18,430 bases of DNA from an uncultured Fibrobacterales bacterium (GTDB lineage: Bacteria; Fibrobacterota; Fibrobacteria; Fibrobacterales; CAWVXU01). The stretch covers positions 1 through 18,430 of the forward strand of contig CAWVXU010000056.1 of the NCBI GenBank assembly GCA_963934255.1, in the 5' to 3' direction. The position numbers and the translations under genes are program-made. Shown here in pieces: positions 446 to 16,227 of the stretch (its first letter is position 1; every line of letters starts with the position of its first letter). The notes under the pieces were generated by a model, which did not search any database, was not told the DNA's origin, and saw only the letters and a program-made list of their open reading frames with translations.

Positions 446-2806
446 ATGTTTTTATTTCACAGTAAAGCTCAAACCCTGAAATATCTTTACGAAAAAGGTT
501 TCCCAACCCCTAAACCTTATTTGATTCAATACTTTAATTGGTTAGAAAACAAACAAGTGGTAATCAAAGAGGTTGCAGACCTTTTTCAAGATAAAACATT
601 AGCAGTTCGTTCGAGTAAGTTAGGCGAAGATTCTGAAGACAGCTCTCAAGCTGGAGCTTTTGATTCATTGCTAAATGTATTGAACGAAGAGGATGAATTT
701 ACTCAAGCGGTAAATGATGTGTTTTCAAGTTATGGAATGATTGAAGGGCAGGATGAAGTACTAGTTCAATCTATGATTAGTAGTGTTGAAATCAGTGGAG
801 TGGTGATGACAAAATCACCTGAAGATGGTGCACCGTATTATGTAATCAATTATGATGATGAAACAGGGAAAACAGATACAGTTACAGGGGGTAAAACTTC
901 CAAAACCGTTTTTGTTTATAGAGACTGTTCTGATTCAAATTTTGATTCTTCAAGAATCAAAAGTATTGTTCATTTAGTTAAGAAACTAGAAGTATTCATC
1001 AATCGCGATGATTTGGATATTGAATTTGCTCAAGACCTAGATAATCAAATTTATTTGTTACAAGTTAGACCAATCACTACCAGTCATAGTTGGAATTTAA
1101 AAATACAAGAAAAAGTAGAACGATATTTACCTGGTGTTTCAGATTTGGTAAACGTTTTTCAGAAACGTCACCCATCATTATTGGGGGATTTTACTTTATT
1201 TGGTGTAATGCCTGATTGGAATCCTGCAGAAATAATTGGATTACACCCGAGGTTATTAGATATTTCATTATACAGATATCTAATCACCAAAAAAACATGG
1301 GCCGAAGCGAGGCAAGAATTGGGTTATTATAAGTTTAACCCAACTGAACTAATGATAGTCTTGGCAGGCAGGCCATATATAGATGTGAGATCTAGTTTTA
1401 ATTCTTTTTTACCCGAGGAATTACCGGAAGAATTAGGCGAAAAAATAATTAACCTTTGGTTGAATCGTCTAAAGCTTCATCCTGAATTTCATGATAAGGT
1501 GGAGTTTGAAATTGCATCCACAGTTTGGAATTTTGATTTAAATAAAACTTTATTAGATCGCTATTCTGACGACCTAATATTTGATGAAATTAATTTATTT
1601 TGTCAAGTTTCATTTGTGCAAGCAAATAAAATGGTAAGATGTCATGATGATTCTTCATTGAATAAGGCTATTAACCAACTCAGAAAATTGGAAATAAAGC
1701 AAAATAAATTTGAGTGCCTAACAAATCCATATGCAATATTAGCACAAACAAAAAGGGTCTTAGATGAGTGTGAAAATTTAGGAACCAAACCATTTTCTGT
1801 AGTGGCAAGGCATGCGTTTATTGCTGAAGATTGGTTGAGGAGTTTGGTGAGAGAAGGGGTTTTAGAACAATCACGAATCGATATTCTAAGAAGTTCAATT
1901 AGAACAGTTTCTAGTGAGATGAGTCATGATTTTTACTTGTTGAAAAAAAAAGAAATGAAAACGAGCAAATTTTATAAAAAATATGGTCATTTAAGACCTG
2001 GTACTTATGATATTCGTTCTCCTCGCTATGATCAACGTAAGGATTTACTAAAAAACTCAATCAACTTTAAAAGTGAATCTCAAGCTAACTTCATTTGGAC
2101 TGCTGATGAGACTATTAAATTAAATAAATTATTTAAAAGACATCACCTAGAAATAAATGCGGACGAGTTTTTAACTTACGTAAAATTATCAATTGAATGG
2201 CGAGAAAAAGGGAAATTCATATTCACTCGATCATTGTCCTTTGTATTAGAAGAATTATGTCGTTGGGGGGAATGTGTTGGCTTAACTAGAGATGATATGA
2301 GTTGGTTGAATATTGAGGAATTATTTACTCTACTAGCTCAACCAGATTTTGGAGATTTGAATCATTGGTTATTGCAAAAAATTAGTCTAGGGAAAGATTG
2401 GTGGGAATCGGGAATTGGTTTAAAATTTGGTTATATCATCAGAAATTCTCGAGATGTTTATGTTGTGCCACAACACAGAAGTACTCCTAACTTTATCACT
2501 CACGAGAAAACTTCAGGCAAATTATATTATTTAAAATCCACAGGTAATATACATATTGATTTAAGTGGTAAAGTTGTTGCAATTGAATCAGCAGATCCGG
2601 GCTATGATTGGTTATTTTCTCAAAACATTAGTGGTTTGATAACTCAATTTGGTGGGACAAATTCACATATGGCAATTCGATGCCGTGAATATAATATACC
2701 GGCTGCGATTGGAGTTGGGGAAGCTCTTTTCTCTAAAGTCATACAGTTTAACAGTGTTTCTATAGATGCAAAATCTTGTATTCTGAAAGAGGGGGAGTTA
2801 TTTTGA
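446..2806 (+). CDS. PEP-synthase/PPDK-like protein, probable L-glutamine kinase (Cj1418-like)
   Basis: 786 aa. N-terminal ATP-grasp motifs (AVRSS...EDS...SQAGAF; DIEFA...LLQVRPI), central MPDWNPAEIIG and YGHLRPGTYDI motifs, C-terminal phosphohistidine swivel domain (ADPGYDW...GGTNSHMAIRCREYNIPAAIGVGE; His codon at 2666-2668). No pyruvate-binding barrel. Neighbours match the MeOPN pathway. Confidence 0.88.
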   Translation: MFLFHSKAQTLKYLYEKGFPTPKPYLIQYFNWLENKQVVIKEVADLFQDKTLAVRSSKLGEDSEDSSQAGAFDSLLNVLNEEDEFTQAVNDVFSSYGMIEGQDEVLVQSMISSVEISGVVMTKSPEDGAPYYVINYDDETGKTDTVTGGKTSKTVFVYRDCSDSNFDSSRIKSIVHLVKKLEVFINRDDLDIEFAQDLDNQIYLLQVRPITTSHSWNLKIQEKVERYLPGVSDLVNVFQKRHPSLLGDFTLFGVMPDWNPAEIIGLHPRLLDISLYRYLITKKTWAEARQELGYYKFNPTELMIVLAGRPYIDVRSSFNSFLPEELPEELGEKIINLWLNRLKLHPEFHDKVEFEIASTVWNFDLNKTLLDRYSDDLIFDEINLFCQVSFVQANKMVRCHDDSSLNKAINQLRKLEIKQNKFECLTNPYAILAQTKRVLDECENLGTKPFSVVARHAFIAEDWLRSLVREGVLEQSRIDILRSSIRTVSSEMSHDFYLLKKKEMKTSKFYKKYGHLRPGTYDIRSPRYDQRKDLLKNSINFKSESQANFIWTADETIKLNKLFKRHHLEINADEFLTYVKLSIEWREKGKFIFTRSLSFVLEELCRWGECVGLTRDDMSWLNIEELFTLLAQPDFGDLNHWLLQKISLGKDWWESGIGLKFGYIIRNSRDVYVVPQHRSTPNFITHEKTSGKLYYLKSTGNIHIDLSGKVVAIESADPGYDWLFSQNISGLITQFGGTNSHMAIRCREYNIPAAIGVGEALFSKVIQFNSVSIDAKSCILKEGELF

Positions 2807-3423
2807 AAAGAATCATAATTTCCCAAAGGATTGATGTCACAGATACTGGAGAGACTAGAGATTCTTTAGATCAAAATTGGTTTTTCTTTCTTCAAGAAAC
2901 TTTTGGCAAAATAGAATTAATACAGGTTTCAAATGTTTGTCGGTCATTGAACTGGTTAGAAAGTATTAAACCAGATTTAATTGTATTGTCTGGTGGGAAT
3001 GATATTGGGCAATACCCTTCACGTGATAATGTTGAACGTCAGTTACTTGAATACTCAAAATTGTTTAACATACCATTACTAGGGTTTTGTCGTGGAGCTC
3101 AATTTATTGCAAGGAATTTTAATGCAGAGTTTGTTGATTTAGATACCAAACACATAGCGCGTAGGCATGAATTAAAATTAAATGCAAAACTTTCAAAATA
3201 TAGAAAAGAAAATTACAACTCCTTTCATCGTTGGGGTATTTCTGAAACAGTTCAGTTTTGTTTAGAAGTTAATATCCTTGGGTTTTCTTTAGAAGGTCAT
3301 GTTGAGGTGTTTAGGGTGAAAAAATATAATGTTTTAGGAGTTATGTGGCATCCTGAGAGAGAGTTACCTTTCCATCAACAAGATATAGATTTAGTAAAAG
3401 ATTTTTTTGGAGGATTAATATGA
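2803..3423 (+). CDS. Class I glutamine amidotransferase-like (peptidase C26) hydrolase, probable gamma-glutamyl-CDP-amidate hydrolase (Cj1417-like)
   Basis: LSGGND, GFCRG (nucleophile Cys), NSFH and MWHPE (His-Glu). Start placed at TTG 2803 (TTGA overlap with the upstream stop, GAGGGGGAG just upstream) rather than 2776. Confidence 0.85.
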   Translation: MKRIIISQRIDVTDTGETRDSLDQNWFFFLQETFGKIELIQVSNVCRSLNWLESIKPDLIVLSGGNDIGQYPSRDNVERQLLEYSKLFNIPLLGFCRGAQFIARNFNAEFVDLDTKHIARRHELKLNAKLSKYRKENYNSFHRWGISETVQFCLEVNILGFSLEGHVEVFRVKKYNVLGVMWHPERELPFHQQDIDLVKDFFGGLI

Positions 3424-4196
3424 AAGCGATCATTTTAGCAGCAGGCCGTGGGTCTAGAATGGAAGATTTAACAGAAGTAAAACCTAAGTGTTTAAGTATA
3501 ATACTAGGTAGAAGCTTGTTAGATTGGCAACTCCAAGCAATTAGGCAAGCATCGATACAAGATATTGTTGTTGTCAGGGGGTATAAAGGAGATTTGATTC
3601 AAGGAAATTTTAAAACTTTAGAGAACCCAGATTGGTCAACCACAAATATGGTTTCCACGCTTGTCTGTGCTGACTCTTATTTACAACAGGAAGAATGTTT
3701 GGTAAGTTATTCAGATATCGTAGTGAAGCCTTCGCATATCAGAGAATTTATCGAAACACCTTGGAATGATGAAGCTTCAATAGCGATAAGTTATGACCTT
3801 GACTGGTTAAAATTATGGTCTTTGAGAAATGAAAACCCTTTGGGTGATGCTGAGAGTTTCAAGGCAAAAGACCATTTTTTGATTGATATTGGGGAAAAAT
3901 GTGAGTCCGTTGATGAAATAGAGGGGCAATACATGGGTATGTTGCGCTTTAAACCTGATGGCTGGAGGCAATTACAAAAATTGAGACTTCATTTACCTGA
4001 ACTTCAACAAAACCAGTTGGATATGACAACAACTTTAAGGTTATTGTTGAAAAATAAGGTGAAAATTCAAGTAGTCGCCCTCAAGGGAGGCTGGATAGAA
4101 GCCGATAACAAGGAAGACTTAGCTTGTTTTGAGGCACAAATTCAAGAATTTGATCAGAACAATCAAAAATGGCTACATGATTGGAGAGATGTATGA
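3420..4196 (+). CDS. LicC-family nucleotidyltransferase, probable CTP:phosphoglutamine cytidylyltransferase (Cj1416-like)
   Basis: MKAIILAAGRGSRM...KPKCL, VRGY, TNMVSTL, SYSDIV, GQYMGM, DMT, WIEAD; directly follows the Cj1418/Cj1417-like genes. Confidence 0.85.
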   Translation: MKAIILAAGRGSRMEDLTEVKPKCLSIILGRSLLDWQLQAIRQASIQDIVVVRGYKGDLIQGNFKTLENPDWSTTNMVSTLVCADSYLQQEECLVSYSDIVVKPSHIREFIETPWNDEASIAISYDLDWLKLWSLRNENPLGDAESFKAKDHFLIDIGEKCESVDEIEGQYMGMLRFKPDGWRQLQKLRLHLPELQQNQLDMTTTLRLLLKNKVKIQVVALKGGWIEADNKEDLACFEAQIQEFDQNNQKWLHDWRDV

Positions 4197-4954
4197 AACA
4201 CGGAGATTTTACTGGTTTAGCTGAAAATTATAGGAAGTATAGACCAGGTTACTCTCATGAAATAGCCAAAATAATCAGTAGAGAAAATCAAAATATAGAT
4301 GATTTTAAAGCTGTGGATGTTGGTGCTGGTACTGGTATTTGGACAAATATATTGAAAGATCACGGAGTTACTGTCATTACAGCAATTGAGCCAAACTCAG
4401 ATATGAAATCGCAAGGTGAAATTGCTTTTCCAGATATAAACTGGATTCAAGCACCTGCAGAAGAAACTACACTAGAGAATAATAGTGTGAACTTAGTGAC
4501 AATGGCTTCTTCTTTTCATTGGCCAGATTTTAACTTGGCAACAAAAGAGTTCCATAGGGTTCTAAAACCAGGTGGCTTATTTGTGGCTTTGTGGAATCCA
4601 AGACTGATTGCAGTAAACCCACTCTTAGTCGAAATTGAAAATAAATTAAAAGAAATAGTGCCTGAGTTAAAAAGAGTATCAAGTGGTAGGTCTAGTTTTA
4701 CTCAAGATTTAACTGAAAAATTATCAGCAACTAAATTATTCAAGGATGTTGTTTATTTAGAATCTACACATGTAGAGAAGCAAAGTAAAGAACGATATAT
4801 TGGCTTGTGGGAATCAGTGAATGACATTCGTGTTCAAGCTGGTGAAGATAGATTTAACAAATTCATAAGCTGGATTCATGAACGCATTGCTGATTTAGAC
4901 TTCATTGAAGCAACCTACTCAACTCGAGCTTGGGTAGCTAGACGTAATGACTAA
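4193..4954 (+). CDS. Class I SAM-dependent methyltransferase (Cj1419/Cj1420-like, candidate phosphoramidate O-methyltransferase)
   Basis: SAM motif VDVGAGTG, IEPN, MASSFHW, RVLKPGG, LWNPR, W-SVNDI. The N-terminus KHGDFT...Y...RPGYS resembles my recollection of Cj1419/1420. Start at ATG 4193 (ATGA overlap, GGAG upstream). Confidence 0.8.
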   Translation: MKHGDFTGLAENYRKYRPGYSHEIAKIISRENQNIDDFKAVDVGAGTGIWTNILKDHGVTVITAIEPNSDMKSQGEIAFPDINWIQAPAEETTLENNSVNLVTMASSFHWPDFNLATKEFHRVLKPGGLFVALWNPRLIAVNPLLVEIENKLKEIVPELKRVSSGRSSFTQDLTEKLSATKLFKDVVYLESTHVEKQSKERYIGLWESVNDIRVQAGEDRFNKFISWIHERIADLDFIEATYSTRAWVARRND

Positions 4955-5486
4955 GGTTCAGTCTACACCTGTGTTTTGGATTACTGGACTTTCTGGGAGC
5001 GGAAAGTCCACTTTTGCTGAAATTCTATTACAAGAAATCCGTAAGCAAACAAAAGTCATTGGTGTTGATGGTGATAAAATGAGAGAAGTTATTGATGACC
5101 CAAGCTACAAGTATACTCGAGAAAGCCGTTTAAATGGAGCTTATCAATATTGTAAGTTTGCTAAATTAATTGCAGAACAAAACGTACCTGTTGTTGTATC
5201 TACCATAAGTTTGTTCCATGAAATACATCAATGGAATAAAGAAAATTTATCATGTTATATTGAGATTTACATTAAATGTGATATGAAAACTTTGATTGCT
5301 AGAGATCCTAAGGGGTTATATAAAAAAGAAAATCAAGCTAACATGCCTGGCCTTGGTCAAGTATACGAAGCCCCCATAAAGCCGGATTACTACTTGTTTG
5401 AACCAAGCATTGATTCTTTAAAAGAACTAGCACAAGAATTGGTGACCACTCATTTTAAACTTAAAGAGAATTATTATGAAAAATGA
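4947..5486 (+). CDS. APS-kinase (CysC)-like P-loop kinase, probable cytidine diphosphoramidate 3'-kinase (Cj1415-like)
   Basis: WITGLSGSGKST P-loop, DGD, VSTISLF, RDPKGLYK, YEAP. No ATP sulfurylase in the window, and the context is the MeOPN block. Confidence 0.8.
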   Translation: MTKVQSTPVFWITGLSGSGKSTFAEILLQEIRKQTKVIGVDGDKMREVIDDPSYKYTRESRLNGAYQYCKFAKLIAEQNVPVVVSTISLFHEIHQWNKENLSCYIEIYIKCDMKTLIARDPKGLYKKENQANMPGLGQVYEAPIKPDYYLFEPSIDSLKELAQELVTTHFKLKENYYEK

Positions 5487-6582
5487 AAAAAATATTCCTG
5501 TGAATAAAGGGAATTATAGTTTAGACACAGAAAAAAGAGAAAAAGCTTTTGAGGGGACTAGAGGAGCGGGTCACCAGGAGGCTTATCTAAGAAATCGTAA
5601 AGAATGGTATGAGTACCCGCAAAATTTAAAGGTGCCAGAATATCCTTTACACCTTGATATTGAGCTTTCATCATTATGCAATTTAAGTTGTCCTATGTGT
5701 TATACAATTACTGATTCATTCAAAAAAAAAGTAAACGCGAAACTAATGGATTTTGAATTGTTTAAAAAAATTATTGATGAGGTAGAGGATAATGTTTTCT
5801 CAATAAGGTTAAGCTTAAGAGGAGAGTCTGCACTCCATCCTAAATTTTTAGAGGCTGTTCATTATGCGAAATCCAAAGGTATCCTAGAAGTGTCAAGCTT
5901 AACAAATGGATCAAAATTAAAGAATAAAAGTTGGTGCAAAAAAGTAGTTGATTCAGGTATTGATTGGTTAACAATTTCATGTGATGGTGTGGGGGAAACA
6001 TATAATAAAATTAGATTTCCCATAAAATTTGAGGAGATGATTCAAGGTTTAAAAAATCTCAAAGAAGAAAAAGAATCTCAAGCAAAAGTAAAGCCTGCTG
6101 TTAAAATTCAAGGGATTTGGCCTGCAATGCAAAATAATCCAGATGAATACTATGAAGCCTACGCTCCTCATTCTGATTTAGTTGCATTTAATCCATTAGT
6201 TGATTACATGAGAGAAATTCCTGAAGATATTCTAGCCTATGAAGATAACTTTGCTTGTTCAATGCTATATCAAAGATTAGTTATTGGTGCTGATGGACAA
6301 GTAATGATTTGCACAAACGATGAAGAGACGGACCATCCAGTTGGGAATTCATATGAAAATACAATACACGAATTATGGCACAGTGAGGCTTTAAATAATT
6401 TCAGAAAAAGGCATTTGAAAAAAGATGGGTTTAAAGAGATAGATATTTGTCGTAGATGCTATATGCCTAGAAAAACAAAAGAAGAGTATTCAAGTGTACA
6501 TGGAAGACCGTTGCTGGTTCAAAACTATTTGAACCAAGAAGACTTTACTACAAGTATTGATCATATCCAGGAGGATTTATGA
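5476..6582 (+). CDS. Radical SAM enzyme with C-terminal Twitch/SPASM-type domain
   Basis: CNLSCPMC (CxxxCxxC), RGES, TNG, SCDG; C-terminal C...LVIGADGQVMIC...VGN...ELW...CRRC. Confidence 0.92.
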   Translation: MKNEKNIPVNKGNYSLDTEKREKAFEGTRGAGHQEAYLRNRKEWYEYPQNLKVPEYPLHLDIELSSLCNLSCPMCYTITDSFKKKVNAKLMDFELFKKIIDEVEDNVFSIRLSLRGESALHPKFLEAVHYAKSKGILEVSSLTNGSKLKNKSWCKKVVDSGIDWLTISCDGVGETYNKIRFPIKFEEMIQGLKNLKEEKESQAKVKPAVKIQGIWPAMQNNPDEYYEAYAPHSDLVAFNPLVDYMREIPEDILAYEDNFACSMLYQRLVIGADGQVMICTNDEETDHPVGNSYENTIHELWHSEALNNFRKRHLKKDGFKEIDICRRCYMPRKTKEEYSSVHGRPLLVQNYLNQEDFTTSIDHIQEDL

Positions 6583-7658
6583 AACCTTTAACAAATCGGT
6601 CTCCTCAACATATTCACTTTGGTGTGAATCAGTCTGAGTTGTTAAGAGAACGGATTGAAATTAGGCGTCAAGCAGTAAATTCTCCTGTAATTTGGTTAGT
6701 AGATTGTTTCTTTAAAGAAAACCCATTGAATATTGATGTGTCTAGAGACGCTGATGATTGTTGGATTTATGTGGATACATCAACCGAACCTTCAATTGAA
6801 CTAGTGGACCAATATGTCAAAGAAACTGACAAAATCAAAGCCCCTTGCGCTGTAGTTGCTATTGGTGGAGGTTCCACTATGGATATTGCTAAGGCTTTGG
6901 CGAATCTGAAGACAAATCCAGGTAAAGCTGAAGATTACCAGGGATGGGACTTAGTTCAAAACGCTGCCCCTTGGAAAATTGCAATTCCAACTTTATCTGG
7001 AACCGGTTCTGAAGGCTCTCGAACTTGTGTGATGGTGAATCAAAAAAAAGGCTTGAAGCTAGGTATGAATTCGCCCCATACGGTATTTGATGAATTAATC
7101 TTAGATCCAAGCTTGAGTAAATCTGTACCTAGATTACAGTATTTTTATACAGGTATGGATACATACATTCATTGTATTGAATCACTGAAAGGTAATTATC
7201 GTCATGCACTTTCCGATGCCTGGTCTAGAGAGGCGTTAGCGCTTTGTAGGGAAGTGTTTACATCAAATGATATGATGAGCGATGACTCTCGAGAAAAAAT
7301 GATGACAGCTTCCTTATTGGGTGGTATGGCTATTGGTAATAGTCTTGTTGGTTTGGTACACCCTTTTTCAGCTGGATTATCTATGGTGCACCACTCAAGG
7401 CATGGAGTGTCAAACTGTGTGGCTCTTAGGGCTCTTGAGGAGTATTACCCCGATGCAGCTAAAGAGATGTTAGAATTTACCAAAATCCAAGGAATTACCT
7501 TGCCAGATTCTATGAATATCGACCTAGATGAAAAAGGCTTTAATCGGCTGCGAGAATCTACTATAATTCATACTAAGCCTTTAGAAAACGCTTTAGGTTC
7601 TGCCTGGAGAGAGATACTTTCAGACACAAAAATCAGACAAATTTTTAAGGGGATTTAA
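6579..7658 (+). CDS. Iron-containing alcohol dehydrogenase, KdnB-like (ulosonic acid terminal-carbon oxidase family)
   Basis: GGGSTMDIAKA and PTLSGTGSE motifs; metal ligands DTYIH, VHPF, RHG. The stretches YQGWDL, KLGMNS..TVFD and FYTGMD.YIHC.ESL.G match Shewanella KdnB as I recall it. Confidence 0.85.
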   Translation: MKPLTNRSPQHIHFGVNQSELLRERIEIRRQAVNSPVIWLVDCFFKENPLNIDVSRDADDCWIYVDTSTEPSIELVDQYVKETDKIKAPCAVVAIGGGSTMDIAKALANLKTNPGKAEDYQGWDLVQNAAPWKIAIPTLSGTGSEGSRTCVMVNQKKGLKLGMNSPHTVFDELILDPSLSKSVPRLQYFYTGMDTYIHCIESLKGNYRHALSDAWSREALALCREVFTSNDMMSDDSREKMMTASLLGGMAIGNSLVGLVHPFSAGLSMVHHSRHGVSNCVALRALEEYYPDAAKEMLEFTKIQGITLPDSMNIDLDEKGFNRLRESTIIHTKPLENALGSAWREILSDTKIRQIFKGI

Positions 7659-8842
7659 TGGACTGGAAGATACCCTTCAGTGGGAGATCGCATCAATATA
7701 CTCATGTCGAAGAACAAGAGGTATTAAGAGTAATGAGGGGTGCAATTCCACTCACTCAAGGCGTAGAAAAATCAAAATTCGAAACAAAATATTGTGAAGT
7801 TCTTGGTGTTCCATATGCCTTTGCGGTTTCAAATGCAACAGCAGGTCTAGAATTAGCTGCTGAATTATGTCAATTAGATTCCGAAGGTGAGGTTCTTATA
7901 CCTACTCATACCTTCACATCCTCTGCATATCCATTTGTAAAACAAGGTGCTCAAATTACTTGGGTAGATATGGATCCTATTACAAGAGTTTCGCAAGTAG
8001 AGCAATATGAATTATGCAGAAGCTCAAAAACAAAAGTGATCGTTGTAGTTCACTTGTATGGTTTTGCGGTTGATATGCTTAGTATTAGAAAATGGGCAGA
8101 TACTCATAATATATTGGTAATTGAAGATAACGCACAAGCACTTGGAGCCAGTAGAGACAATTACAAAACAGGTCAATTAGGTGATTTCTCTGTTGCGTCA
8201 TTCCATTCCCATAAAAACTTAACCACACTAGGTGAAGGTGGAATGTTAAGTGTTAGAGATGCTCAATATGCAGAGATCATCCCATTAATAAGACACAATG
8301 GACATGCGCCTTATTTGGGTGACAGAGAGTGTTATTGGAAGCCTGCGATGGGTGATGTCGTACTCCCAAAGTTAAATGATAAAATAATCTTACCGCATAA
8401 TTTTTGTTTGGGAGAAGTTGAATGCGCCCTAGGGACTTTATTATTAGATCGTTTAAATCAAATGAATCAAGAAAAAAGAACTCGTGCACTTTGGGTGATG
8501 GATCAATTAAAAAACATTGAGGGTCTAAAATTTCACCGAGTTGAGGATGAATCACATACTTACCATTTATTGGTGGCAGAGTTAAGAACAACAAAGTTAA
8601 GAGATCAATTCCTTTCACACTTGTCTAAAAAATATTTAATTCAAGGTGTGGTTCAGTATAACCCACTTCACAGATATCCATTTTATCAGGAATTAGGCCT
8701 AGGCAAAGCTATTTGTCCAAATTCGGATTCTTTTTTTGATACTATGCTTTCCTTTCCATTTCATCATTGTTTGGAAGATACGCAAATTGAGTATTTATCT
8801 GAATCCATTATACAAACTGCTAAGCATTGTGGTCTTGTGTGA
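7658..8842 (+). CDS. DegT/DnrJ/EryC1/StrS family PLP-dependent sugar aminotransferase
   Basis: SNATAGL, TFTSSA, VVHLYG, IEDNAQA, SFHSHKNLTTLGEGGM (PLP lysine). Confidence 0.94.
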   Translation: MDWKIPFSGRSHQYTHVEEQEVLRVMRGAIPLTQGVEKSKFETKYCEVLGVPYAFAVSNATAGLELAAELCQLDSEGEVLIPTHTFTSSAYPFVKQGAQITWVDMDPITRVSQVEQYELCRSSKTKVIVVVHLYGFAVDMLSIRKWADTHNILVIEDNAQALGASRDNYKTGQLGDFSVASFHSHKNLTTLGEGGMLSVRDAQYAEIIPLIRHNGHAPYLGDRECYWKPAMGDVVLPKLNDKIILPHNFCLGEVECALGTLLLDRLNQMNQEKRTRALWVMDQLKNIEGLKFHRVEDESHTYHLLVAELRTTKLRDQFLSHLSKKYLIQGVVQYNPLHRYPFYQELGLGKAICPNSDSFFDTMLSFPFHHCLEDTQIEYLSESIIQTAKHCGLV

Positions 8843-10422
8843 ATCGAATCATTGTTATTCCGGCAGTTAAAAAAGATGTGGCTTTTGATAATGATTTAGT
8901 CAAAAGAATTGCCGGTGTAATGCTGATTCAACGTGCACTAGATTTAGCCTGTACAATTGAGCTGAAAGAAAATATTTGGGTTATTACTGACTCGCAAGAA
9001 ATTGAATTGTTGTGCCAGCGACAAGGAATTTCATGCTATAGAGATTCAATGTTGAAATTAAAAGAGGATGTAATTAAGAATTTAGAGGATATAATCAGTG
9101 GATTACCCTCAAGTGAACACTTAATGCTTCTCTGGCCTTATTGTCCTTTAATAAAAAAAGATACTATTCTTAAAGCTTGGGGTCACTATTTAAAAAGTGG
9201 TGAACACCCAACTATTTCTGTAAGAAAAGTAAAAGTGGATGGTATGGAATCTCCAAAGGGAATTATACAGCTAAGCGATGCTAAGCAATATTACAGAATT
9301 ATGAGAGCTTTTATATTAATCCCTCGAAAAGTAATAAGCAAAGGTCAGGAATCATATCATCCATATGTAATTCATCAACCTTATGCTGAAATAGCTTCTT
9401 TTCATGACTGGTGGGTGGTTGAAAAATTAATAGAAAGAAAAAGAATCTTATTTAGAGTGATAGGGAGTAATAAAATTGGCATGGGTCATATTTATCGTTC
9501 TTTAACCTTAGCTCATGAAGTCACCAACCACGAAGTATTGTTTTTATGTGATAGCGATTCAGATGTAGCCTTAAATAAAATTGCGGGTTATGATTATTAT
9601 TTGAAAAGTTGTTCAAAAGGTGAAGAGATTAAAAATATTCTTGATTTACATCCAGATCTAGTTATTAATGATATTCTAAATACACAAAAAGAAGAAATTT
9701 TGGCTTTGCAAAATGCTAACATAAAAGTGGTCAACTTCGAAGATCTTGGAGAGGGAGCTCAGTTTGCTGATTTAGTGGTAAATGAGTTATATGATCAACC
9801 ACAATACTCTGGAGACCATGTTTGCTGGGGACACCAGTACTCTTTTCTACGGGACGAATTCGTAGGGGCAAAGGTGCACTCATTCCGCGAGAATGTGGGG
9901 AATGTTTTATTAACCTTCGGTGGAAGTGACCCAAGTAATTTAACCTTACGAGTATTAAAAAAAATCACTAATTTTTCTATTCAAAACAAATTAAATGTGA
10001 ATATTGTTTGCGGAACAGGCTATTTATACAAGGAAGAATTAACTTTTTATTTAACCCAAATGAATTACTCTGGCTTTAATTGTACTTTCGAAACAGGCGT
10101 TATTTCAAGAATAATGGAAACTACAGAAGTTGCAATATCTTCAAATGGTAGGACGACTTATGAGTTAGCTCATATGAATATTCCTGCAATTATCTTGGCA
10201 CACCACCCGAGAGAACACACACATCGTTTTACTGTAGAGGAAAATGGCTTTATCAACTTGGGAGTTTATGATGAGCTACAGGATAAAAACAAAGTGGTTC
10301 AACATCTAGAAGAATTAGTTTGCAATACATCGGTGCGTAAGAGCTTATATCAATCTATGGAATCATTTAACTTTTTACAAAATAAAGATAAAGTGATTCA
10401 AAAAATTCTAAGTCTTCTATGA
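8839..10422 (+). CDS. Fusion of a degenerate NeuA/PseF-like cytidylyltransferase domain with a PseG/SpsG-like GT-B NDP-sugar hydrolase domain
   Basis: N-terminal IVIPA...IAGVMLIQRAL...VITDS.EI...LWPYCPL...EIASFHDW (CTP_transf_3-like fold). From ~9440: ILFRV.G...IGMGHIYRSL.LA, LRDEF, LLTFGGSDP, ISSNGRTTYELA...IP. Start at GTG 8839 (GTGA overlap). Confidence 0.8.
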   Translation: MNRIIVIPAVKKDVAFDNDLVKRIAGVMLIQRALDLACTIELKENIWVITDSQEIELLCQRQGISCYRDSMLKLKEDVIKNLEDIISGLPSSEHLMLLWPYCPLIKKDTILKAWGHYLKSGEHPTISVRKVKVDGMESPKGIIQLSDAKQYYRIMRAFILIPRKVISKGQESYHPYVIHQPYAEIASFHDWWVVEKLIERKRILFRVIGSNKIGMGHIYRSLTLAHEVTNHEVLFLCDSDSDVALNKIAGYDYYLKSCSKGEEIKNILDLHPDLVINDILNTQKEEILALQNANIKVVNFEDLGEGAQFADLVVNELYDQPQYSGDHVCWGHQYSFLRDEFVGAKVHSFRENVGNVLLTFGGSDPSNLTLRVLKKITNFSIQNKLNVNIVCGTGYLYKEELTFYLTQMNYSGFNCTFETGVISRIMETTEVAISSNGRTTYELAHMNIPAIILAHHPREHTHRFTVEENGFINLGVYDELQDKNKVVQHLEELVCNTSVRKSLYQSMESFNFLQNKDKVIQKILSLL

Positions 10423-11126
10423 AACACGAAGAAAAAGTTTGGATTATCATACAGGCGAGACTAGGATCTACCCGCTTAAAAAATAAAATGCTATTGCACT
10501 TTAAAGGACAATCTATACTTAGCTGGTCTATTCAACGTTTAATGAAATGTAAAAATGTAGAAGGTGTTGCAATTGCGATACCAAATAATGAATTAGACGC
10601 AAAGGTACTAGCACAATGCATCCCCCAAGAAGTCCGTATCTTTCAAGGGTCTTCAGAAGATTTATGTGAACGCTATTATCATGCCGCTAAAGAATTAGCT
10701 TGTACACAAGTAGTCCGTGTTTGTGCTGATAATCCATTAATTTGCCCAGAATTAGTGGATGAATTAATTGAATTTCATTTAAAAAACTCAGTTGACTATA
10801 GTTGGAATCACATCCCTTTAAATAATCAATTTCCAGATGGACTTGGGGCGGAGATAACAAGTTTCCAAACATTAGAGTGGATTTTTTCAAATGCAAAAGG
10901 TGCGCAACGAGAACATTTGTTCAATGTGCTTCGAGAAAATAAAACATTATTTCATTTCGGAACTTATAACCCAAAAGATTCCAAACTTTGCCGTCCCGAG
11001 TTGAAATTTGACATTGATACATGGGACGATTATATCTATCTAAATAAATTTAACTTTAATGTCACCATGAATGCACGCGAGATAATTCATGAGGTAGACT
11101 CTTATGTAAATGCAGGTAAAAAATGA
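10419..11126 (+). CDS. SpsF-like cytidylyltransferase (candidate CMP-nonulosonate synthetase)
   Basis: IIIQARLGSTRLKNKML, GSSEDL..RY, VVRVCADNPLI.P, PDGLGAE, REH, DIDTWDD. Confidence 0.88.
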   Translation: MKHEEKVWIIIQARLGSTRLKNKMLLHFKGQSILSWSIQRLMKCKNVEGVAIAIPNNELDAKVLAQCIPQEVRIFQGSSEDLCERYYHAAKELACTQVVRVCADNPLICPELVDELIEFHLKNSVDYSWNHIPLNNQFPDGLGAEITSFQTLEWIFSNAKGAQREHLFNVLRENKTLFHFGTYNPKDSKLCRPELKFDIDTWDDYIYLNKFNFNVTMNAREIIHEVDSYVNAGKK

Positions 11127-12178
11127 ATCTAAATGAATATTTCCAAACACCTAGGAATAAATTTCCAGTGAAACACCCCGTCATTATAGCAGAAGCGGGT
11201 GTGAATCATGAGGGCTCAATGGATACTGCGAAACGATTGATAGATGAAGCCAAATTAGGTGGAGCTGATGCAATTAAATTTCAAACCTACAAAGCCTCAA
11301 CTATTGCCTCTAAAGATTCACCTTCTTATTGGGACCTAAACCAAGAGCCTACAACGTCCCAATATGAACTATTTAAGAAGCATGATAAATTTTGGAAAAA
11401 AGAGTATGAAGAATTAGCACGTTATTGTGAAGATGCGGATATAGAATTTATGAGTACTCCTTTTGATGTCGAATCGGTTGAGTTCTTAAACCCTCTGATG
11501 TCTAGTTTCAAAGTTTCTTCATCTGATATCACAAATAGACCGATGATTGAAAAAATGGCAGCGTATGGGAAACCTATGATAGTATCTACTGGAGCAAGTT
11601 TTCTCTATGAAGTACAAGAAGCTGTATCGTGGATAGAGGAATATGAGGTACCCATCTGCCTTTTACATTGTGTATTAAACTACCCCACTCCTGATGAGCA
11701 AGCAAATCTTGGTGGAATATTGTCTCTACGGGAAAGATTCCCTGATATTAGAGTTGGATATTCTGATCACACTTTGCCTAAGGATATGAAAACCTTGCAG
11801 GCCGCATCCTTATTAGGAGCTAGCCTAATAGAAAAACATTTCACTCATGATAAGAGTTTACCTGGCAATGACCATTACCATGCAATGGATTATAAAGATT
11901 TGCAAAAATTCAGAAATGATTGGTCTCATACAATGGCCTTATTGGGAGAAAATCAAATTGTTAGTTCTCCTAAGGAAGAAATAGCAAGACTTAATGCTCG
12001 CCGAAGCTTGGTAATCACAAAGGATTTACCCAAAGGACATAAATTATCCAAGGAAGATTTAACTTGGAAACGACCTGCCTCAGGTATCTCTCCAAGAAAC
12101 TACCATGAAGTTTTAGGTATGACTTTAACTCAGGGCCTATTGGAAGATACTGTCTTAAAGTGGGGATATTTAGAATAA
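11123..12178 (+). CDS. neuB: NeuB-family nonulosonic acid synthase with C-terminal SAF domain
   Basis: IIAEAGVNHEGS, ADAIKFQTY, STPFD, KVSSSD, STGAS, LHCVLNYP, GYSDHT, IEKHFT; C-terminal ARRSL...KRPASGISP. Which nonulosonate it makes cannot be determined from motifs. Confidence 0.95.
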   Translation: MNLNEYFQTPRNKFPVKHPVIIAEAGVNHEGSMDTAKRLIDEAKLGGADAIKFQTYKASTIASKDSPSYWDLNQEPTTSQYELFKKHDKFWKKEYEELARYCEDADIEFMSTPFDVESVEFLNPLMSSFKVSSSDITNRPMIEKMAAYGKPMIVSTGASFLYEVQEAVSWIEEYEVPICLLHCVLNYPTPDEQANLGGILSLRERFPDIRVGYSDHTLPKDMKTLQAASLLGASLIEKHFTHDKSLPGNDHYHAMDYKDLQKFRNDWSHTMALLGENQIVSSPKEEIARLNARRSLVITKDLPKGHKLSKEDLTWKRPASGISPRNYHEVLGMTLTQGLLEDTVLKWGYLE

Positions 12179-13497
12179 TGAGTTCTAAAAAGAAGTTGTC
12201 TTTACAAACAGGCGAAGACTTAAAGGGATGTCTTGAAAGACTATTTCCATTAAGAAGGTGTCTTTCGGGTCCAGATAATCAGCTTACCTTAGAGATTTTA
12301 AGAGAATACATTCCTCAACTTGAAATAAAAAACTTTAAGATACATGAAAAAGTTTGGGATTGGAAAATCCCGGAATATTGGACTTTACACGAAGCCAAAA
12401 TTCTAGATACTCAAGGTAATTTAGTGTTTGATGGTATGGATCATACCTTGAAGGTAGTTAGCCATTCTAATTCTTTTTCTGGTAAAATTAGTGGTCAATA
12501 TTTAAGAAATAAAATACACACGCATGAAAAATTAATTGAGGCGATTCCTTATCGAACCTATTATTATAAGGACGATTGGGGATTTTGTACATCTCAAAGT
12601 GATATAGAATCATGGCTTAGAGATGAAGATGATTACTTGGTGGAGTTAAAAACCAGTCATGAAGCAAAGGACATGCCTTATGGTGAGATTACTTTCCCGG
12701 GTACTTCAGATGAAGAAATATTAGTCTCAACATACATTTGTCACCCTAGTATGGCTAATGATAATTTAAGTGGTGTTGTAATGACATCAGCACTAGCTCA
12801 ATTTTTAGCGCAAAAGAAAACTCTAAAATATACTTGGAAACTAATATGGGTCCCTGAAACAATAGGGGCGTTAGCTTGGTCTTACTATAACCAAAGTCAC
12901 TGGCATAAAATACAAGCTGCTATAATAATGAGTACATGTGCAGGTCCAGGAGAATTCACATATAAAGCACCATTTAAAGAGAACCATTGGCTAGAAACAA
13001 CACTTTGTAAAACAATGGATGAAAATGCTTATAAGTATCAAAAATATAAATTTGATCCTCATGGTAGTGATGAACGACAATACTCTGCACCAGGGTTAAG
13101 AGTTCCAAGTTGTTCTTTACATCAAAGTAAATACTATGACTATGCGGAGTATCACAGCTCTTTAGATAATCTAGAGAATGTCAGTGCTTCTCAACTTGAG
13201 CGCTCATTAAAAGTTCACCAAAAATGGGTTGAATCCATTGAGTCTGAACGTTTCCCAAAACGAAAAGAAACTATCAGTGGAGAGTATATGCTGGGGCCTA
13301 GAAATTTGTACTCAACAGACGGAGGTACATTTTTACCAGGTACAAACCTAAGTGCTTTAGATCTACGATTATGGATATTGTTTTATTGTGATGGATCCTT
13401 TAGTCTATCTCAGATCGCTCAAACTCTCCAAATGCAAAAATCTTTAGTTGAAGCTGAAGTTGAATTTTTAATAAACGAAGGTATGTTAGATGCCTAA
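12178..13497 (+). CDS. DUF4910-family M28 aminopeptidase-like protein with DUF2172 insert and C-terminal winged helix (Cj1295-like)
   Basis: LFPLRRCLSG, VWDWKIP..W, AIPYRTYYY..DWGFC, STYICHPSMANDNLSG, PETIGA, GSDERQY, EYHSSLD; C-terminal WILFYCDG..SL..IA. Start at ATG 12178 (TAATG overlap). Confidence 0.85.
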   Translation: MSSKKKLSLQTGEDLKGCLERLFPLRRCLSGPDNQLTLEILREYIPQLEIKNFKIHEKVWDWKIPEYWTLHEAKILDTQGNLVFDGMDHTLKVVSHSNSFSGKISGQYLRNKIHTHEKLIEAIPYRTYYYKDDWGFCTSQSDIESWLRDEDDYLVELKTSHEAKDMPYGEITFPGTSDEEILVSTYICHPSMANDNLSGVVMTSALAQFLAQKKTLKYTWKLIWVPETIGALAWSYYNQSHWHKIQAAIIMSTCAGPGEFTYKAPFKENHWLETTLCKTMDENAYKYQKYKFDPHGSDERQYSAPGLRVPSCSLHQSKYYDYAEYHSSLDNLENVSASQLERSLKVHQKWVESIESERFPKRKETISGEYMLGPRNLYSTDGGTFLPGTNLSALDLRLWILFYCDGSFSLSQIAQTLQMQKSLVEAEVEFLINEGMLDA

Positions 13498-14473
13498 TTT
13501 TCGAATCAACAAAGTAGAGCCTAGTCAGTGGGATGAACTTGTCAATCAAAGTGAGCAAGGCACAGTTTTTACATCTACCTTTTACCTTGATGCTTTAAAT
13601 ATTCAATACCAAGCTATGGGTGTTTATCGAGGAGATGAATTAACTGGAGGATTATTGTTATTAGACTTAGATGATTCTAAAGAACTTCAGTTACATGATT
13701 TAATTATCCACGGAGGGATTCTTTTCAGAACTACTTCAGGTCTCAAGAAGGCAAAAAGAAATAGTCATGAATATGAAATGAACTGTTTTGTTGTAGAGTG
13801 GTTAACCAAAGAATACCAATCAATTACGATCGCTTTTTCACCTGAGTATAAAGATACTAGAGCGTTTTTGTGGCATGAATACCACAATCCAAACCCTGAG
13901 GCAAAGTTTAAAGTAGATCTAAGATATACCTCTCGATTAGATATTTCTGATTTGGAAGAAAATCAAGATAACTGCCCAATTTGGAAGAACCTCGACATTT
14001 TACGTAAGAGGCACATGAAACAAGCAAAAAGAGAGAGTGCCACTTTTCACGTTGAACCTGATTCTATAGAAAAGTTATTACAGTTTTACAGAGAACTAAT
14101 GAAAAGTCAAGGAATTGAAATAAATACCGATAAAATAGATAGTATGCGAAATTTAATGCAAAAAGCGATTGAGAAAAGTCAAGGAATTTTGACAACCACA
14201 AGAGATCACTTAGGAAATCTTCTTTATACCACATTTTGGGTGTGGGATCAACGTCGCGCGTATTATCTGTTTGGGGCGGGATCAGTCGAGCATAAAGCTA
14301 ATTACCAAGGCACGCATTGTTTTTGGAACAGCTTCTTTTATTTGAAACAAAATTATCAGGTCAATAGTATTGATTTTGAGGGTGTGAATAGCCCAAAGAG
14401 AGGCGTATACAAAATGAGTTTTGGTGGTGATTTAGTTTCCTATTATGAGATATACAAAGGTAAACAGAAGTGA
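13490..14473 (+). CDS. GNAT/FemAB-like tandem-fold acyltransferase
   Basis: WDELV..S.QGTVF, AYYLFGAG, IDFEGVNSPKRGVYKMSFGG.L: a pattern typical of Acetyltransf_6/FemAB-like proteins in glycan loci. Confidence 0.78.
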   Translation: MPNFRINKVEPSQWDELVNQSEQGTVFTSTFYLDALNIQYQAMGVYRGDELTGGLLLLDLDDSKELQLHDLIIHGGILFRTTSGLKKAKRNSHEYEMNCFVVEWLTKEYQSITIAFSPEYKDTRAFLWHEYHNPNPEAKFKVDLRYTSRLDISDLEENQDNCPIWKNLDILRKRHMKQAKRESATFHVEPDSIEKLLQFYRELMKSQGIEINTDKIDSMRNLMQKAIEKSQGILTTTRDHLGNLLYTTFWVWDQRRAYYLFGAGSVEHKANYQGTHCFWNSFFYLKQNYQVNSIDFEGVNSPKRGVYKMSFGGDLVSYYEIYKGKQK

Positions 14474-16227
14474 AAATATTATCAATTTATTGGGGAATTT
14501 GTTCCAGTGTTTCATTAGCAATAGATGGAGTTGTGGTGGCAGCAACTCACGAAGAAAGATTTAGTCGTAAAAAAAATGACGATGCTTTCCCTAGATTAGC
14601 CATAGATGATTGTTTGAAAAGGTTCAATCTTCAGGGGTCAGATTTGGATTATGTAGTAGTTTGTTCTAAACATCAGGATAGATTTCACCAATGGACGCGT
14701 CCAGCACTTTGGAATATTAAAGATTATATCTATGAACAAAAATACTATTGGCTACCAAATTTATTAGAAGGTAAAGAACTAGATTATAATAAAATCATGT
14801 CGCACAAATGCGACTCTAGCCAATATCCAACTGAGTATTGGAGTCTATCTCCAAGGGATGAGTCTATAGATTACGCAACAGACCGAGGTAAAATTTTAGC
14901 GGCCTATCTAAATATTTCCTATAAAAAAGTGAAATACCAGGAACATCATCATGGTCATGCCTTGTATTCCTACCTAGCTTCAGGTTGGAAAAATAAAGAA
15001 GTTTTAGCTTTAACTGTTGATGGCCAAGGAGATGGGTTAAATGCAACTATCTCAAAATTTGATAAAAATGGAAACCATGAAAGAATTTATGCAACTAATC
15101 AATGTAGTATAGCTCGAATATATAGATACATGACATTGTTACTTGGTATGAAACCTAATGAACATGAGTTTAAGGTCATGGGTCTTGCACCCTATGGAAA
15201 ACCCAAATACTCAATGGAAGCATACAATGTCTTTGCTGAAACCTTAGATGTTGAAGGTATCGAGTTTGTTTGGAAAATCAAACCTACAGATAGCTACCAG
15301 TGGTTTAAAGAGAGGCTTGAGGGAATTCGGTTTGACAGTATTGCATGGGGCTTACAAAAATGGGTAGAAGAGCTCTTATGTAAATGGGTAGCCAATGCAA
15401 TTTCCCACACCAAAATCCAGGATGTTGTAATTGCAGGTGGTGTAGCGATGAATATTAAAGCAATGGGGGAGGTCGCTAAAATAGAAAGTTTACAAAATCT
15501 ATTTGTAGGTGGATCAGCTAGCGACGAATCGCTAGTGTTAAGTGCTCCCTTTAGCTTCGAGGATAGTGAAATTTCAAGTCTAGCCCCGATAAACCATTTG
15601 TATCTAGGGCCAAATCATTCAGAGGCAGATGAAAACGAAGCGTTAGCTACGCTTGATTTAGAAAAATATACCATCGAATATGGAAATGAAAATCCAGAAC
15701 GTATTGCACAACTTTTAGTAGAAGGTAAAATTCTTGCACGTAGTGTTGGGCACATGGAATTTGGACAAAGAGCTTTAGGCAATAGAAGTATCTTAGCTGA
15801 TCCAACTTTGCCGCATGTAAAAGAGACTATCAATGCGATGGTTAAAAATCGTGATTTTTGGATGCCTTTTGCGCCAATGGTATTACCGCAGTATGCTGAT
15901 AAATACTTAATAAACCCCAAAGGTCTAAGGTCACCCTATATGACAATTGGTTTTGAAACTACTTCACTTGGATTTGAATCTATGCGATCTGCTTGTCATC
16001 CATCTGATCATAGTGCAAGACCTCAAATCATAGAGAATAACCCTGAATTAATTGAAATTTTAGAAGCCTTTGAAACGTTATCAGGTCGTGGTGCGTTATT
16101 AAATACAAGCTTCAATCTTCATGGATTCCCTATAGTGAATACAGCTCTAGAAGCTTTGTATGTTTTAGATAATTCTGGACTAAATGGTTTAATTTTAAAT
16201 CATGCTTTAGTTATTAAAAAAGGATGA
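14470..16227 (+). CDS. NodU/CmcH/TobZ-family carbamoyltransferase
   Basis: EERFSRKK, EHHHGHA, TVDGQGD, EFKVMGLAPYG, AGGVAMN, MEFGQRALGNRSILADP, VKNRDFWMPFAP, H..D.SARPQ, LLNTSFNLHGFPIV. Confidence 0.95.
   Translation: MKILSIYWGICSSVSLAIDGVVVAATHEERFSRKKNDDAFPRLAIDDCLKRFNLQGSDLDYVVVCSKHQDRFHQWTRPALWNIKDYIYEQKYYWLPNLLEGKELDYNKIMSHKCDSSQYPTEYWSLSPRDESIDYATDRGKILAAYLNISYKKVKYQEHHHGHALYSYLASGWKNKEVLALTVDGQGDGLNATISKFDKNGNHERIYATNQCSIARIYRYMTLLLGMKPNEHEFKVMGLAPYGKPKYSMEAYNVFAETLDVEGIEFVWKIKPTDSYQWFKERLEGIRFDSIAWGLQKWVEELLCKWVANAISHTKIQDVVIAGGVAMNIKAMGEVAKIESLQNLFVGGSASDESLVLSAPFSFEDSEISSLAPINHLYLGPNHSEADENEALATLDLEKYTIEYGNENPERIAQLLVEGKILARSVGHMEFGQRALGNRSILADPTLPHVKETINAMVKNRDFWMPFAPMVLPQYADKYLINPKGLRSPYMTIGFETTSLGFESMRSACHPSDHSARPQIIENNPELIEILEAFETLSGRGALLNTSFNLHGFPIVNTALEALYVLDNSGLNGLILNHALVIKKG

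Follow-up and report, generated by a model that had tools for sequence, protein, structure and literature searches.

What does a bacterium make with an operon in which a relative of KdnB, an oxidase of 3-deoxy-D-manno-oct-2-ulosonic acid (Kdo), and an aminotransferase are joined to a nonulosonic acid synthase of the NeuB family? The operon lies in an uncultured Fibrobacterales bacterium (assembly GCA_963934255.1, 2.67-Mb genome, 92% complete) on contig CAWVXU010000056.1 (C56); "the window" is this entire 18.4-kb contig (18,430 nucleotides). Its open reading frames (ORFs) comprise eighteen genes, all on the + strand and arranged as a single block. We lean towards the answer that the operon makes a cytidine monophosphate (CMP)-activated 9-amino-9-deoxy-nonulosonic acid of the type of 2-keto-3-deoxynononic acid (Kdn), a predicted product of which we infer every reaction from sequence. 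The cassette is a real, widespread and apparently undescribed variant, probably acting on a nine-carbon acid, of the chemistry that yields 8-amino-8-deoxy-Kdo (Kdo8N). Its core consists of five genes:

6579-7658, + strand: KdnB-like type III (Fe/Zn-type) alcohol dehydrogenase/oxidase of a NeuB-linked clade (Pfam Fe-ADH)
7658-8842, + strand: DegT-family pyridoxal phosphate-dependent aminotransferase of its own clade (PF01041)
8827-10422, + strand: fusion of 531 amino acids (aa), an N-terminal degenerate cytidylyltransferase-like domain followed by a PseG-like nucleoside diphosphate (NDP)-sugar hydrolase domain, GxGH motif kept
10419-11126, + strand: SpsF-type cytidylyltransferase (PF02348, E 7e-24; N-terminal motif intact)
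11123-12178, + strand: NeuB-family synthase, here called NeuB-X (PF03102 and SAF)

In the proposed pathway, the PseG-like domain is predicted to release a free hexose from a nucleotide sugar, which NeuB would condense with phosphoenolpyruvate, yielding Kdn or one of its stereoisomers. The KdnB-like enzyme is predicted to oxidise a carbinol of this acid, preferably the terminal C9 alcohol, the aminotransferase to aminate the resulting oxo-nonulosonate at C9, and SpsF to activate the aminated acid to CMP-9-amino-9-deoxy-Kdn or a stereoisomer. Variable neighbours may further acylate, methylate or carbamoylate the amine.

The six genes between 5476 and 12178 each overlap the next. TAATG at 7656-7660 joins the Fe-ADH and aminotransferase genes, and the ORF coordinates bear out the initial annotation, which had described this one-base overlap and its run into PseG-like, SpsF-like and NeuB genes. 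Its "PseG-like" gene does hold a PseG-like domain but is not a stand-alone PseG, being fused to the cytidylyltransferase-like domain and below the TIGR03590 cut-off (127.2 bits against 153.55). The gene order over 5000-10230 is no assembly artefact, since a contig from another marine run covers this part with zero differences. One metatranscriptome contains eight short contigs that match parts of the operon, evidence for presence only and not for transcription. Promoter and terminator scans of the window stay at chance level (32 against 30.8 and 7 against 5.2, respectively).

The oxidase and the aminotransferase

Passages of PMC4402001 and PMC5125639 describe how KdnB and KdnA of Shewanella oneidensis oxidise and then transaminate Kdo to Kdo8N. 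The best solved relatives of the window Fe-ADH are Shewanella 3RF7 (E 2e-77) and KdnB itself (5K8C, E 4e-73), against only E 5e-25 for the next structures, those of general Fe-ADHs. Its metal site (D194/H198/H261/H275) and GGG motif are invariant and the same as in Kdo-type KdnB, so that its assignment to the KdnB-like subfamily, made from the first reading of the sequence, stands. A place inside the Kdo-linked KdnB clade is rejected: the window oxidase scores 250 bits to 5K8C, against 577 bits for the gene of locus L107 (order kdnA-kdnB-kdsB-waaA), the orthologue of Shewanella KdnB, and in a 114-row oxidase tree 30 distant KdnB-like genes are split from the window group by a branch with 100% support in the Shimodaira-Hasegawa-like approximate likelihood-ratio test (SH-aLRT). 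This tree comes from a quick search and is rooted, unreliably, by a single long outgroup, for which reason no direction of oxidase evolution is claimed; the label "Kdo" that L064 bears in it is a mislabel from a weak 28% match. In the family search, 7,654 of 8,000 scored proteins lie at E<=1e-50 with every KdnB-like kind pooled, and the nearest taxon-named homologue belongs to a Fibrobacteria metagenome-assembled genome (64%). At E<=1e-40, none of 60 relatives of the host has a close oxidase, hence there is no same-lineage synteny, and the plasmid search gave no close relative.

With KdnA (5K8B) the window aminotransferase shares only a weak similarity (E 4e-20, a low rank among 55 matches), and it falls below the cut-offs of PseC (208.8/423.5), LegC (130.9/420) and WecE. 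In a 78-row tree that includes 8 PseC and 2 LegC references, it forms its own clade with Leptospira enzymes (100% SH-aLRT), apart from PseC and LegC. An identity as KdnA orthologue is rejected by the weak match and the separate clade, one as PseC or LegC by the missed cut-offs and the same tree; the grouping with PseC/LegC that the initial annotation had named as damaging to its proposal does not appear. Viral contigs contain no relative of the aminotransferase.

Distribution of the cassette

The distribution rests on a scan of GTDB genomes, from which the best 80 of 161 oxidase relatives, together with two from genome samples, give 82 loci; downstream genes are counted in the 55 of them with at least 6 kb downstream. 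NeuB-X is adjacent in 52 of the 55, an aminotransferase is found in 50, a PseG fusion or GT2-fold protein in 53 and SpsF in 51, counts that are descriptive and overstate independence, as the loci were chosen by similarity and include many near relatives. KdsB or WaaA occurs in none of the 55, a NeuC/WecB-like gene likewise in none, and a PseB-like gene in 2. Of the three exceptions, two possess NeuB-X elsewhere in the genome and one has a different synthase adjacent; all 55 close oxidase loci are thus tied to a nonulosonate synthase. Hosts include Campylobacterota, Desulfovibrionaceae, Bacteroidota, Chlorobi, Proteobacteria, Actinomycetota, Prochlorococcus, Leptospira and others.

For contrast, 5, 8 and 22 oxidase matches came from sampled genomes of the Leptospira group (41), gammaproteobacteria (400) and Bacteroidota (301), 32 of them outside the centre genomes and 30 of these less than 47% identical. 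Twenty of the 30 distant KdnB-like genes stand beside kdsB, waaA or kdsA-type genes, four beside a NeuB fusion and none beside NeuB-X. The choice between neuB and kdsB/waaA as partners, posed at the outset as a check, falls to neuB in the window clade (52/55 adjacent to NeuB-X, 0 with KdsB/WaaA). Many Bacteroidota (L113-L131) possess KdnB-like genes beside kdsB-like genes, often without an adjacent kdnA; these pairs suggest Kdo8N or 8-oxo-Kdo chemistry outside Shewanella.

Two slots of the cassette are filled by alternative enzymes. Among the 82 loci, the aminotransferase is of the window type in 40 and KdnA-like in 32, never both; the KdnA-like substitute matches 5K8B at E 3e-79, and in the tree the KdnA-like enzymes from NeuB loci form the sister group of Kdo-linked KdnA. 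The KdnB/KdnA-type pairing first proposed for the window consequently holds for the substitute in related loci, not for the window's own aminotransferase. The hydrolase slot contains the PseG fusion in 34 loci and a 224-aa GT2-fold protein in 35, again never both. The latter (e.g. L062:12236-12910) resembles PDB 6P61, stands where the PseG fusion is missing and may be a GT-A-fold nucleotide-sugar hydrolase. At L295:5391-10616, NeuB-X is accompanied by GT2 and SpsF, and the Fe-ADH/DegT pair is replaced by an aminotransferase of class III (over the PRK06209 cut-off) and a short-chain dehydrogenase/reductase; L279 has another Fe-ADH. Both loci suggest that the function rather than the gene is conserved.

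Synthase, base sugar and the order of steps

NeuB-X is the sole NeuB of the host genome and lies below the cut-offs of TIGR03569 (318.8/399.65) and PseI (241.2/340.25). In a 92-row tree it forms a single clade of 54 rows (99% SH-aLRT), and the phylogeny called for in the initial annotation separates it from PseI, LegI/TIGR03569-type and SiaC-type synthases.

The order of steps was approached through 80 metagenome loci centred on NeuB-X, of which the 33 with at least 4.5 kb upstream are counted. Twelve contain the fusion gene only, seven the oxidase and aminotransferase, two an aminotransferase without a window-clade oxidase, and twelve show neither partner nearby. The minimal loci carry no aminotransferase. 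Over 44 rows, minimal and pair-bearing synthases are interspersed (8 changes), a monophyletic minimal group is rejected (approximately unbiased test, p-AU 0.002), and the nearest cross-kind pairs are up to 83% identical, because of which the substrate of NeuB-X is probably unchanged by the pair; only three weakly discriminating positions separate synthases with and without it. The PARxGSK...KN motif of the fused cytidylyltransferase is intact in 20/22 minimal loci and lost in 39/39 oxidase loci, 36 of which carry SpsF. From these patterns, and by analogy with Kdo8N, we infer a two-gene base pathway starting from an unmodified nucleotide sugar, to which oxidase, aminotransferase and a new CMP-transferase are added, these three acting after the condensation. 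The minimal two-gene module, with intact CMP-transferase/PseG-like fusion and NeuB-X (L194:6914-9601, L217:142-2828, L250:3146-5826), is common in Arcobacter-like and marine bacteria and may itself be an undescribed route that turns a nucleotide sugar into a 9-hydroxy nonulosonate.

The base sugar is indicated by two further synthase types. In one order of Bacteroidota, where the aminotransferase occurs in 4/191 genomes (the fourth at a contig edge), loci L072, L303 and L305 contain window-clade oxidase and aminotransferase, followed by a different NeuB, an HAD phosphatase and an SpsF-type gene. The phosphatases of L072 (248 bits) and L305 (247 bits) pass the KDN-9-phosphatase equivalog NF058599 (cut-off 180), and that of L303 is 75% identical to that of L072. 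The L072 phosphatase matches PDB 3E81, whose sequence start agrees with the Bacteroides thetaiotaomicron enzyme (PMC6200933 supplement). As laid out in sections of PMC6200933, the route of B. thetaiotaomicron leads from mannose 6-phosphate (Man-6-P) to Kdn-9-phosphate (Kdn-9-P), followed by a phosphatase and CMP-Kdn synthetase. As this route blocks C6, the pair cannot act on hexose C6 at these three loci. A degenerate NeuB-like domain fused to an SpsF-type domain follows the Kdn-9-phosphatase at L072:10777-12525. A Bacteroides-type Kdn pathway in the window itself is rejected, the host having no KDN-9-phosphatase match and the window NeuB only 28% identity to the L072 synthase.

Four Leptospira loci have a CBS-NeuB-SAF-AP_endonuc_2 fusion (about 755 aa) with the window-clade aminotransferase, NeuA and a KdnB-like gene on its flanks; L199 was rejected as a member of this type, being NeuB-NeuC. 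Leptospira interrogans carries the window-type aminotransferase P0131 (AAN48813/AAS70740; 73% identical to that of L103), which is probably LA_1614/YP_002103. Parts of PMC9000132 describe the KL1/KL2 locus (neuAB) of Serratia marcescens, where a neuB of 2241 bp with an added COG1082 domain is required for KDN. The order neuB2, aminotransferase, neuA2 given for Leptospira in portions of Fouts 2016 matches that of L103, and passages of Ricaldi 2012 (PMC3438082) leave one aminotransferase of the L. interrogans cluster unassigned and assign the fused NeuB2 to an animal-like Neu5Ac (N-acetylneuraminic acid) route. The same passages report that L. interrogans L1-130 produces a sugar agreeing with Neu5Ac in mass and retention, and list unexplained Leptospira masses of 407 and 440 after derivatisation with 1,2-diamino-4,5-methylenedioxybenzene (DMB). 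Leptospira serves as a lead only, since 9-acetamido-Kdn is isobaric with Neu5Ac, with identical DMB masses, and m/z 407 fits three compounds: dehydrated 9-amino-Neu5Ac (407.156), acetimidoylneuraminic acid (Neu5Am) and sodiated Kdn. Being unspecific, this peak is given no weight in favour of a 9-amino-Kdn product.

Amination would accordingly follow condensation, as NeuB-X is also found where the pair is missing and the pair occurs both at Kdn-9-P loci and with a Serratia-type synthase. Of the two sites first proposed, C9 of the finished acid or C6 of its hexose precursor, the comparative data favour the former, and of the two base sugars, Kdn rather than Neu.

Product, competing explanations and significance

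C9 is the preferred site of amination, by analogy with Kdo8N: C8 of Kdo and C9 of Kdn each bear the primary alcohol at the chain end, and primary alcohols and aldehydes are the substrates of the nearest Fe-ADH families. A broader proposal, which we make tentatively, is that natural 9-amino-9-deoxy-Kdn and its N-substituted forms occur across many phyla through a mobile oxidase/aminotransferase module plugging into three unrelated Kdn synthase types, that NeuB-X with a PseG-like or GT2-fold hydrolase forms an undescribed nucleotide-sugar route to Kdn, and that the "Neu5Ac" of L. interrogans could be 9-acetamido-Kdn or Neu5Ac made from Kdn.

Several observations weigh against a 9-amino-Kdn product, beside the non-independence of the loci. 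Sequence cannot separate C9 from C8 or C5. Kdn as product of NeuB-X is an extrapolation from other synthase types, the Bacteroidota enzyme owes its label of Kdn-9-P synthase to its neighbour and not to a direct comparison, and the Leptospira fusion resembles Serratia NeuB in architecture and length alone. A search for precursor genes beside the loci found none consistently (manC at 1 locus, gmd at 3, wecB at 2). The twelve NeuB-X loci with neither partner nearby belong here too, as do three Chlorobi genomes whose oxidase cassette has no window-type aminotransferase; two of these possess, away from the cassette, a KdnA-like gene accompanied by a different Fe-ADH and by a NeuA-like gene (L299:6202-9232, L300:4800-7829). 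The motif loss in the fused cytidylyltransferase may reflect one evolutionary event. Finally, the absence of a PseB/LegB-type dehydratase from the window, noted at first, is confirmed, but two PF02719 dehydratases lie on other host contigs.

The same post-condensation logic at another carbon, either C8 (a secondary alcohol, in the ring register of Kdo) or C5 (converting Kdn to neuraminic acid, a NeuC-independent route to Neu5Ac), is unlikely but deserves the most serious hearing among the alternatives. All co-occurrence evidence fits it equally, and an 8-amino nonulosonate is present in a Tenacibaculum O-antigen. Free neuraminic acid is unstable, the core has no clear N-acetyltransferase, and the nearest Fe-ADH families act on aldehydes and primary alcohols, all of which counts against it. 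L. interrogans combines P0131 with the L1-130 sugar of Neu5Ac mass and retention (in passages of PMC3438082), but KdnB acts on C8 of Kdo, a primary alcohol, in giving Kdo8N (in passages of PMC4402001).

Less probable still is a 9-amino product on a base derived from N-acetylhexosamine (Neu5Ac or its 5-epimer), or an amine introduced at C6 while the hexose is still bound to NDP. Nucleotide sugars are the usual substrates of PseG and DegT enzymes, NeuB-X keeps the SAF-domain arginine (KRP motif), and the host has two WecB-type epimerases, which score as non-hydrolysing WecB. The pair, however, works with the Man-6-P type of route, in which C6 is phosphorylated, and NeuB-X is alike in loci with and without it; the match of m/z 407 to dehydrated 9-amino-Neu5Ac is shared equally by Neu5Am and sodiated Kdn. 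The Neu5Ac pathway is rejected for the window, as the epimerases of the host score as non-hydrolysing and SiaC-like synthases form another clade. The host also carries manC-like and gmd-like genes.

Action of the pair on Kdo alone, which would have been at odds with the initial annotation, is rejected by the missing host Kdo genes, the co-occurrence at the loci and the oxidase tree. The host genome has no WaaA, no PF02348 outside the window, a KdsA match below cut-off and a weak LpxC match; having no recognisable Kdo pathway, within the limits of an incomplete genome, it is unlikely to offer Kdo as substrate. A pentose as substrate of NeuB-X, which would yield an eight-carbon acid and make the cassette a second way to Kdo8N or an isomer where KdsA is missing, is very improbable. 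The closest characterised relatives of both tailoring enzymes are Kdo8N enzymes, and the host has no KdsA over cut-off, but KDN-9-phosphatase loci contain the same pair, the oxidases and KdnA-like enzymes linked to NeuB fall in clades apart from the Kdo-linked ones, and the activating enzyme is of SpsF type, below the KdsB cut-offs. An ordinary pseudaminic (Pse) or legionaminic (Leg) acid pathway, with the dehydratase encoded elsewhere and the Fe-ADH in another role, is largely refuted: PseG-like and SpsF-like genes are present and host contig C52 has a PseB-like gene (282 bits, cut-off 407.75), but the aminotransferase lies outside PseC and LegC and the synthase outside the PseI and TIGR03569 clades, a PseB-like gene is near only 2/55 loci, minimal loci have no aminotransferase at all, and the C52 gene has a neighbour of its own.

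Each of the two pathways was also rejected separately, Pse since the PseC, PseG, PseI and PseF (20.1/205.7) cut-offs are all missed, no PseB is linked and the clades are separate, and Leg since the LegC and TIGR03569 cut-offs are missed and no NeuC-like gene occurs in the 55 loci. The PseB-like gene of C52 (L100:8768-10971, G000:C52) adjoins a UDP-sulfoquinovose synthase-like gene, both below cut-off, a pair with a possible role in a sulfonated sugar. The host's other DegT gene stands on the same contig in a WbpA/B/E-like cluster.

A 9-amino-Kdn pathway resembles that of Kdo8N in that a free ulosonic acid would be oxidised and then transaminated before CMP activation; unlike it, the window pair is linked to NeuB and SpsF instead of KdsB/WaaA, and its aminotransferase belongs to another DegT clade. 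Both synthase types of the B. thetaiotaomicron and Serratia Kdn pathways are coupled to the window's module in other genomes, whereas the window has a third synthase clade, an NDP-sugar hydrolase and no phosphatase; neither of those pathways adds an amine. With the Pse and Leg pathways (PseB-C-H-G-I-F; LegB-C-H-G-I-F; Bacillus subtilis Sps) the window shares DegT, a PseG-like hydrolase, NeuB and an SpsF-like transferase, but its core lacks a 4,6-dehydratase and an acetyltransferase and contains an alcohol dehydrogenase.

The remaining genes of the window surround this core:

5476-6582, + strand: radical SAM/SPASM protein, optional neighbour outside the core (close relative in 6/52 oxidase loci)
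12160-14473, + strand: DUF4910 aminopeptidase-like and Acetyltransf_6/GNAT-like proteins, frequent optional neighbours (15/52 and 10/52 oxidase loci)
14470-16227, + strand: NodU-like carbamoyltransferase, occasional neighbour (close relative in 2/52 loci)

The GNAT-like/DUF4910 neighbours are candidates for N-acylation of the new amine and the NodU-like enzyme for further tailoring; a more distant relative of the latter lies between oxidase and aminotransferase in L072. At 446-5486 stand five genes resembling the Campylobacter O-methyl phosphoramidate route, in which their families presumably have roles. Two are over cut-off (PRK05849, 869 bits, and a PRK05541 kinase), the others are a gamma-glutamyl-CDP-amidate hydrolase-like gene below cut-off, a nucleotidyltransferase and a methyltransferase, and they are rarely linked to the cassette elsewhere. 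The contig end (16232-18428) contains a PhyH-type dioxygenase, a TylF-type methyltransferase and a second radical SAM gene, likely for further glycan tailoring.

Searches of the openly licensed PMC and bioRxiv literature gave no description of a natural 9-amino nonulosonate or of this cassette, and only synthetic compounds turned up as C9-amino sialic acids. The accessible portions of Kleikamp 2020, SugarBase 2026, Vieira 2021, PMC11337218, PMC5125639, PMC7522209 and PMC13214540 do not mention a natural 9-amino nonulosonate. "Kdo 8-oxidase", a frequent annotation of KdnB-like family members, is probably a wrong label for the NeuB-linked clade. In the known bacterial nonulosonic acids, to our knowledge, amino groups (C5, C7) come with the hexose precursor; a later amination of the chain end would, if true, be a new branch of sialic-acid diversity. 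With the cassette, the unassigned Leptospira aminotransferase acquires a testable function, and mass-only Neu5Ac calls merit re-examination because 9-acetamido-Kdn shares its DMB masses with Neu5Ac. If the prediction is true, the product would be a zwitterionic sugar that alters surface charge and the binding of phages and lectins, and the cassette would be an enzyme source for C9-amino sialic acids.

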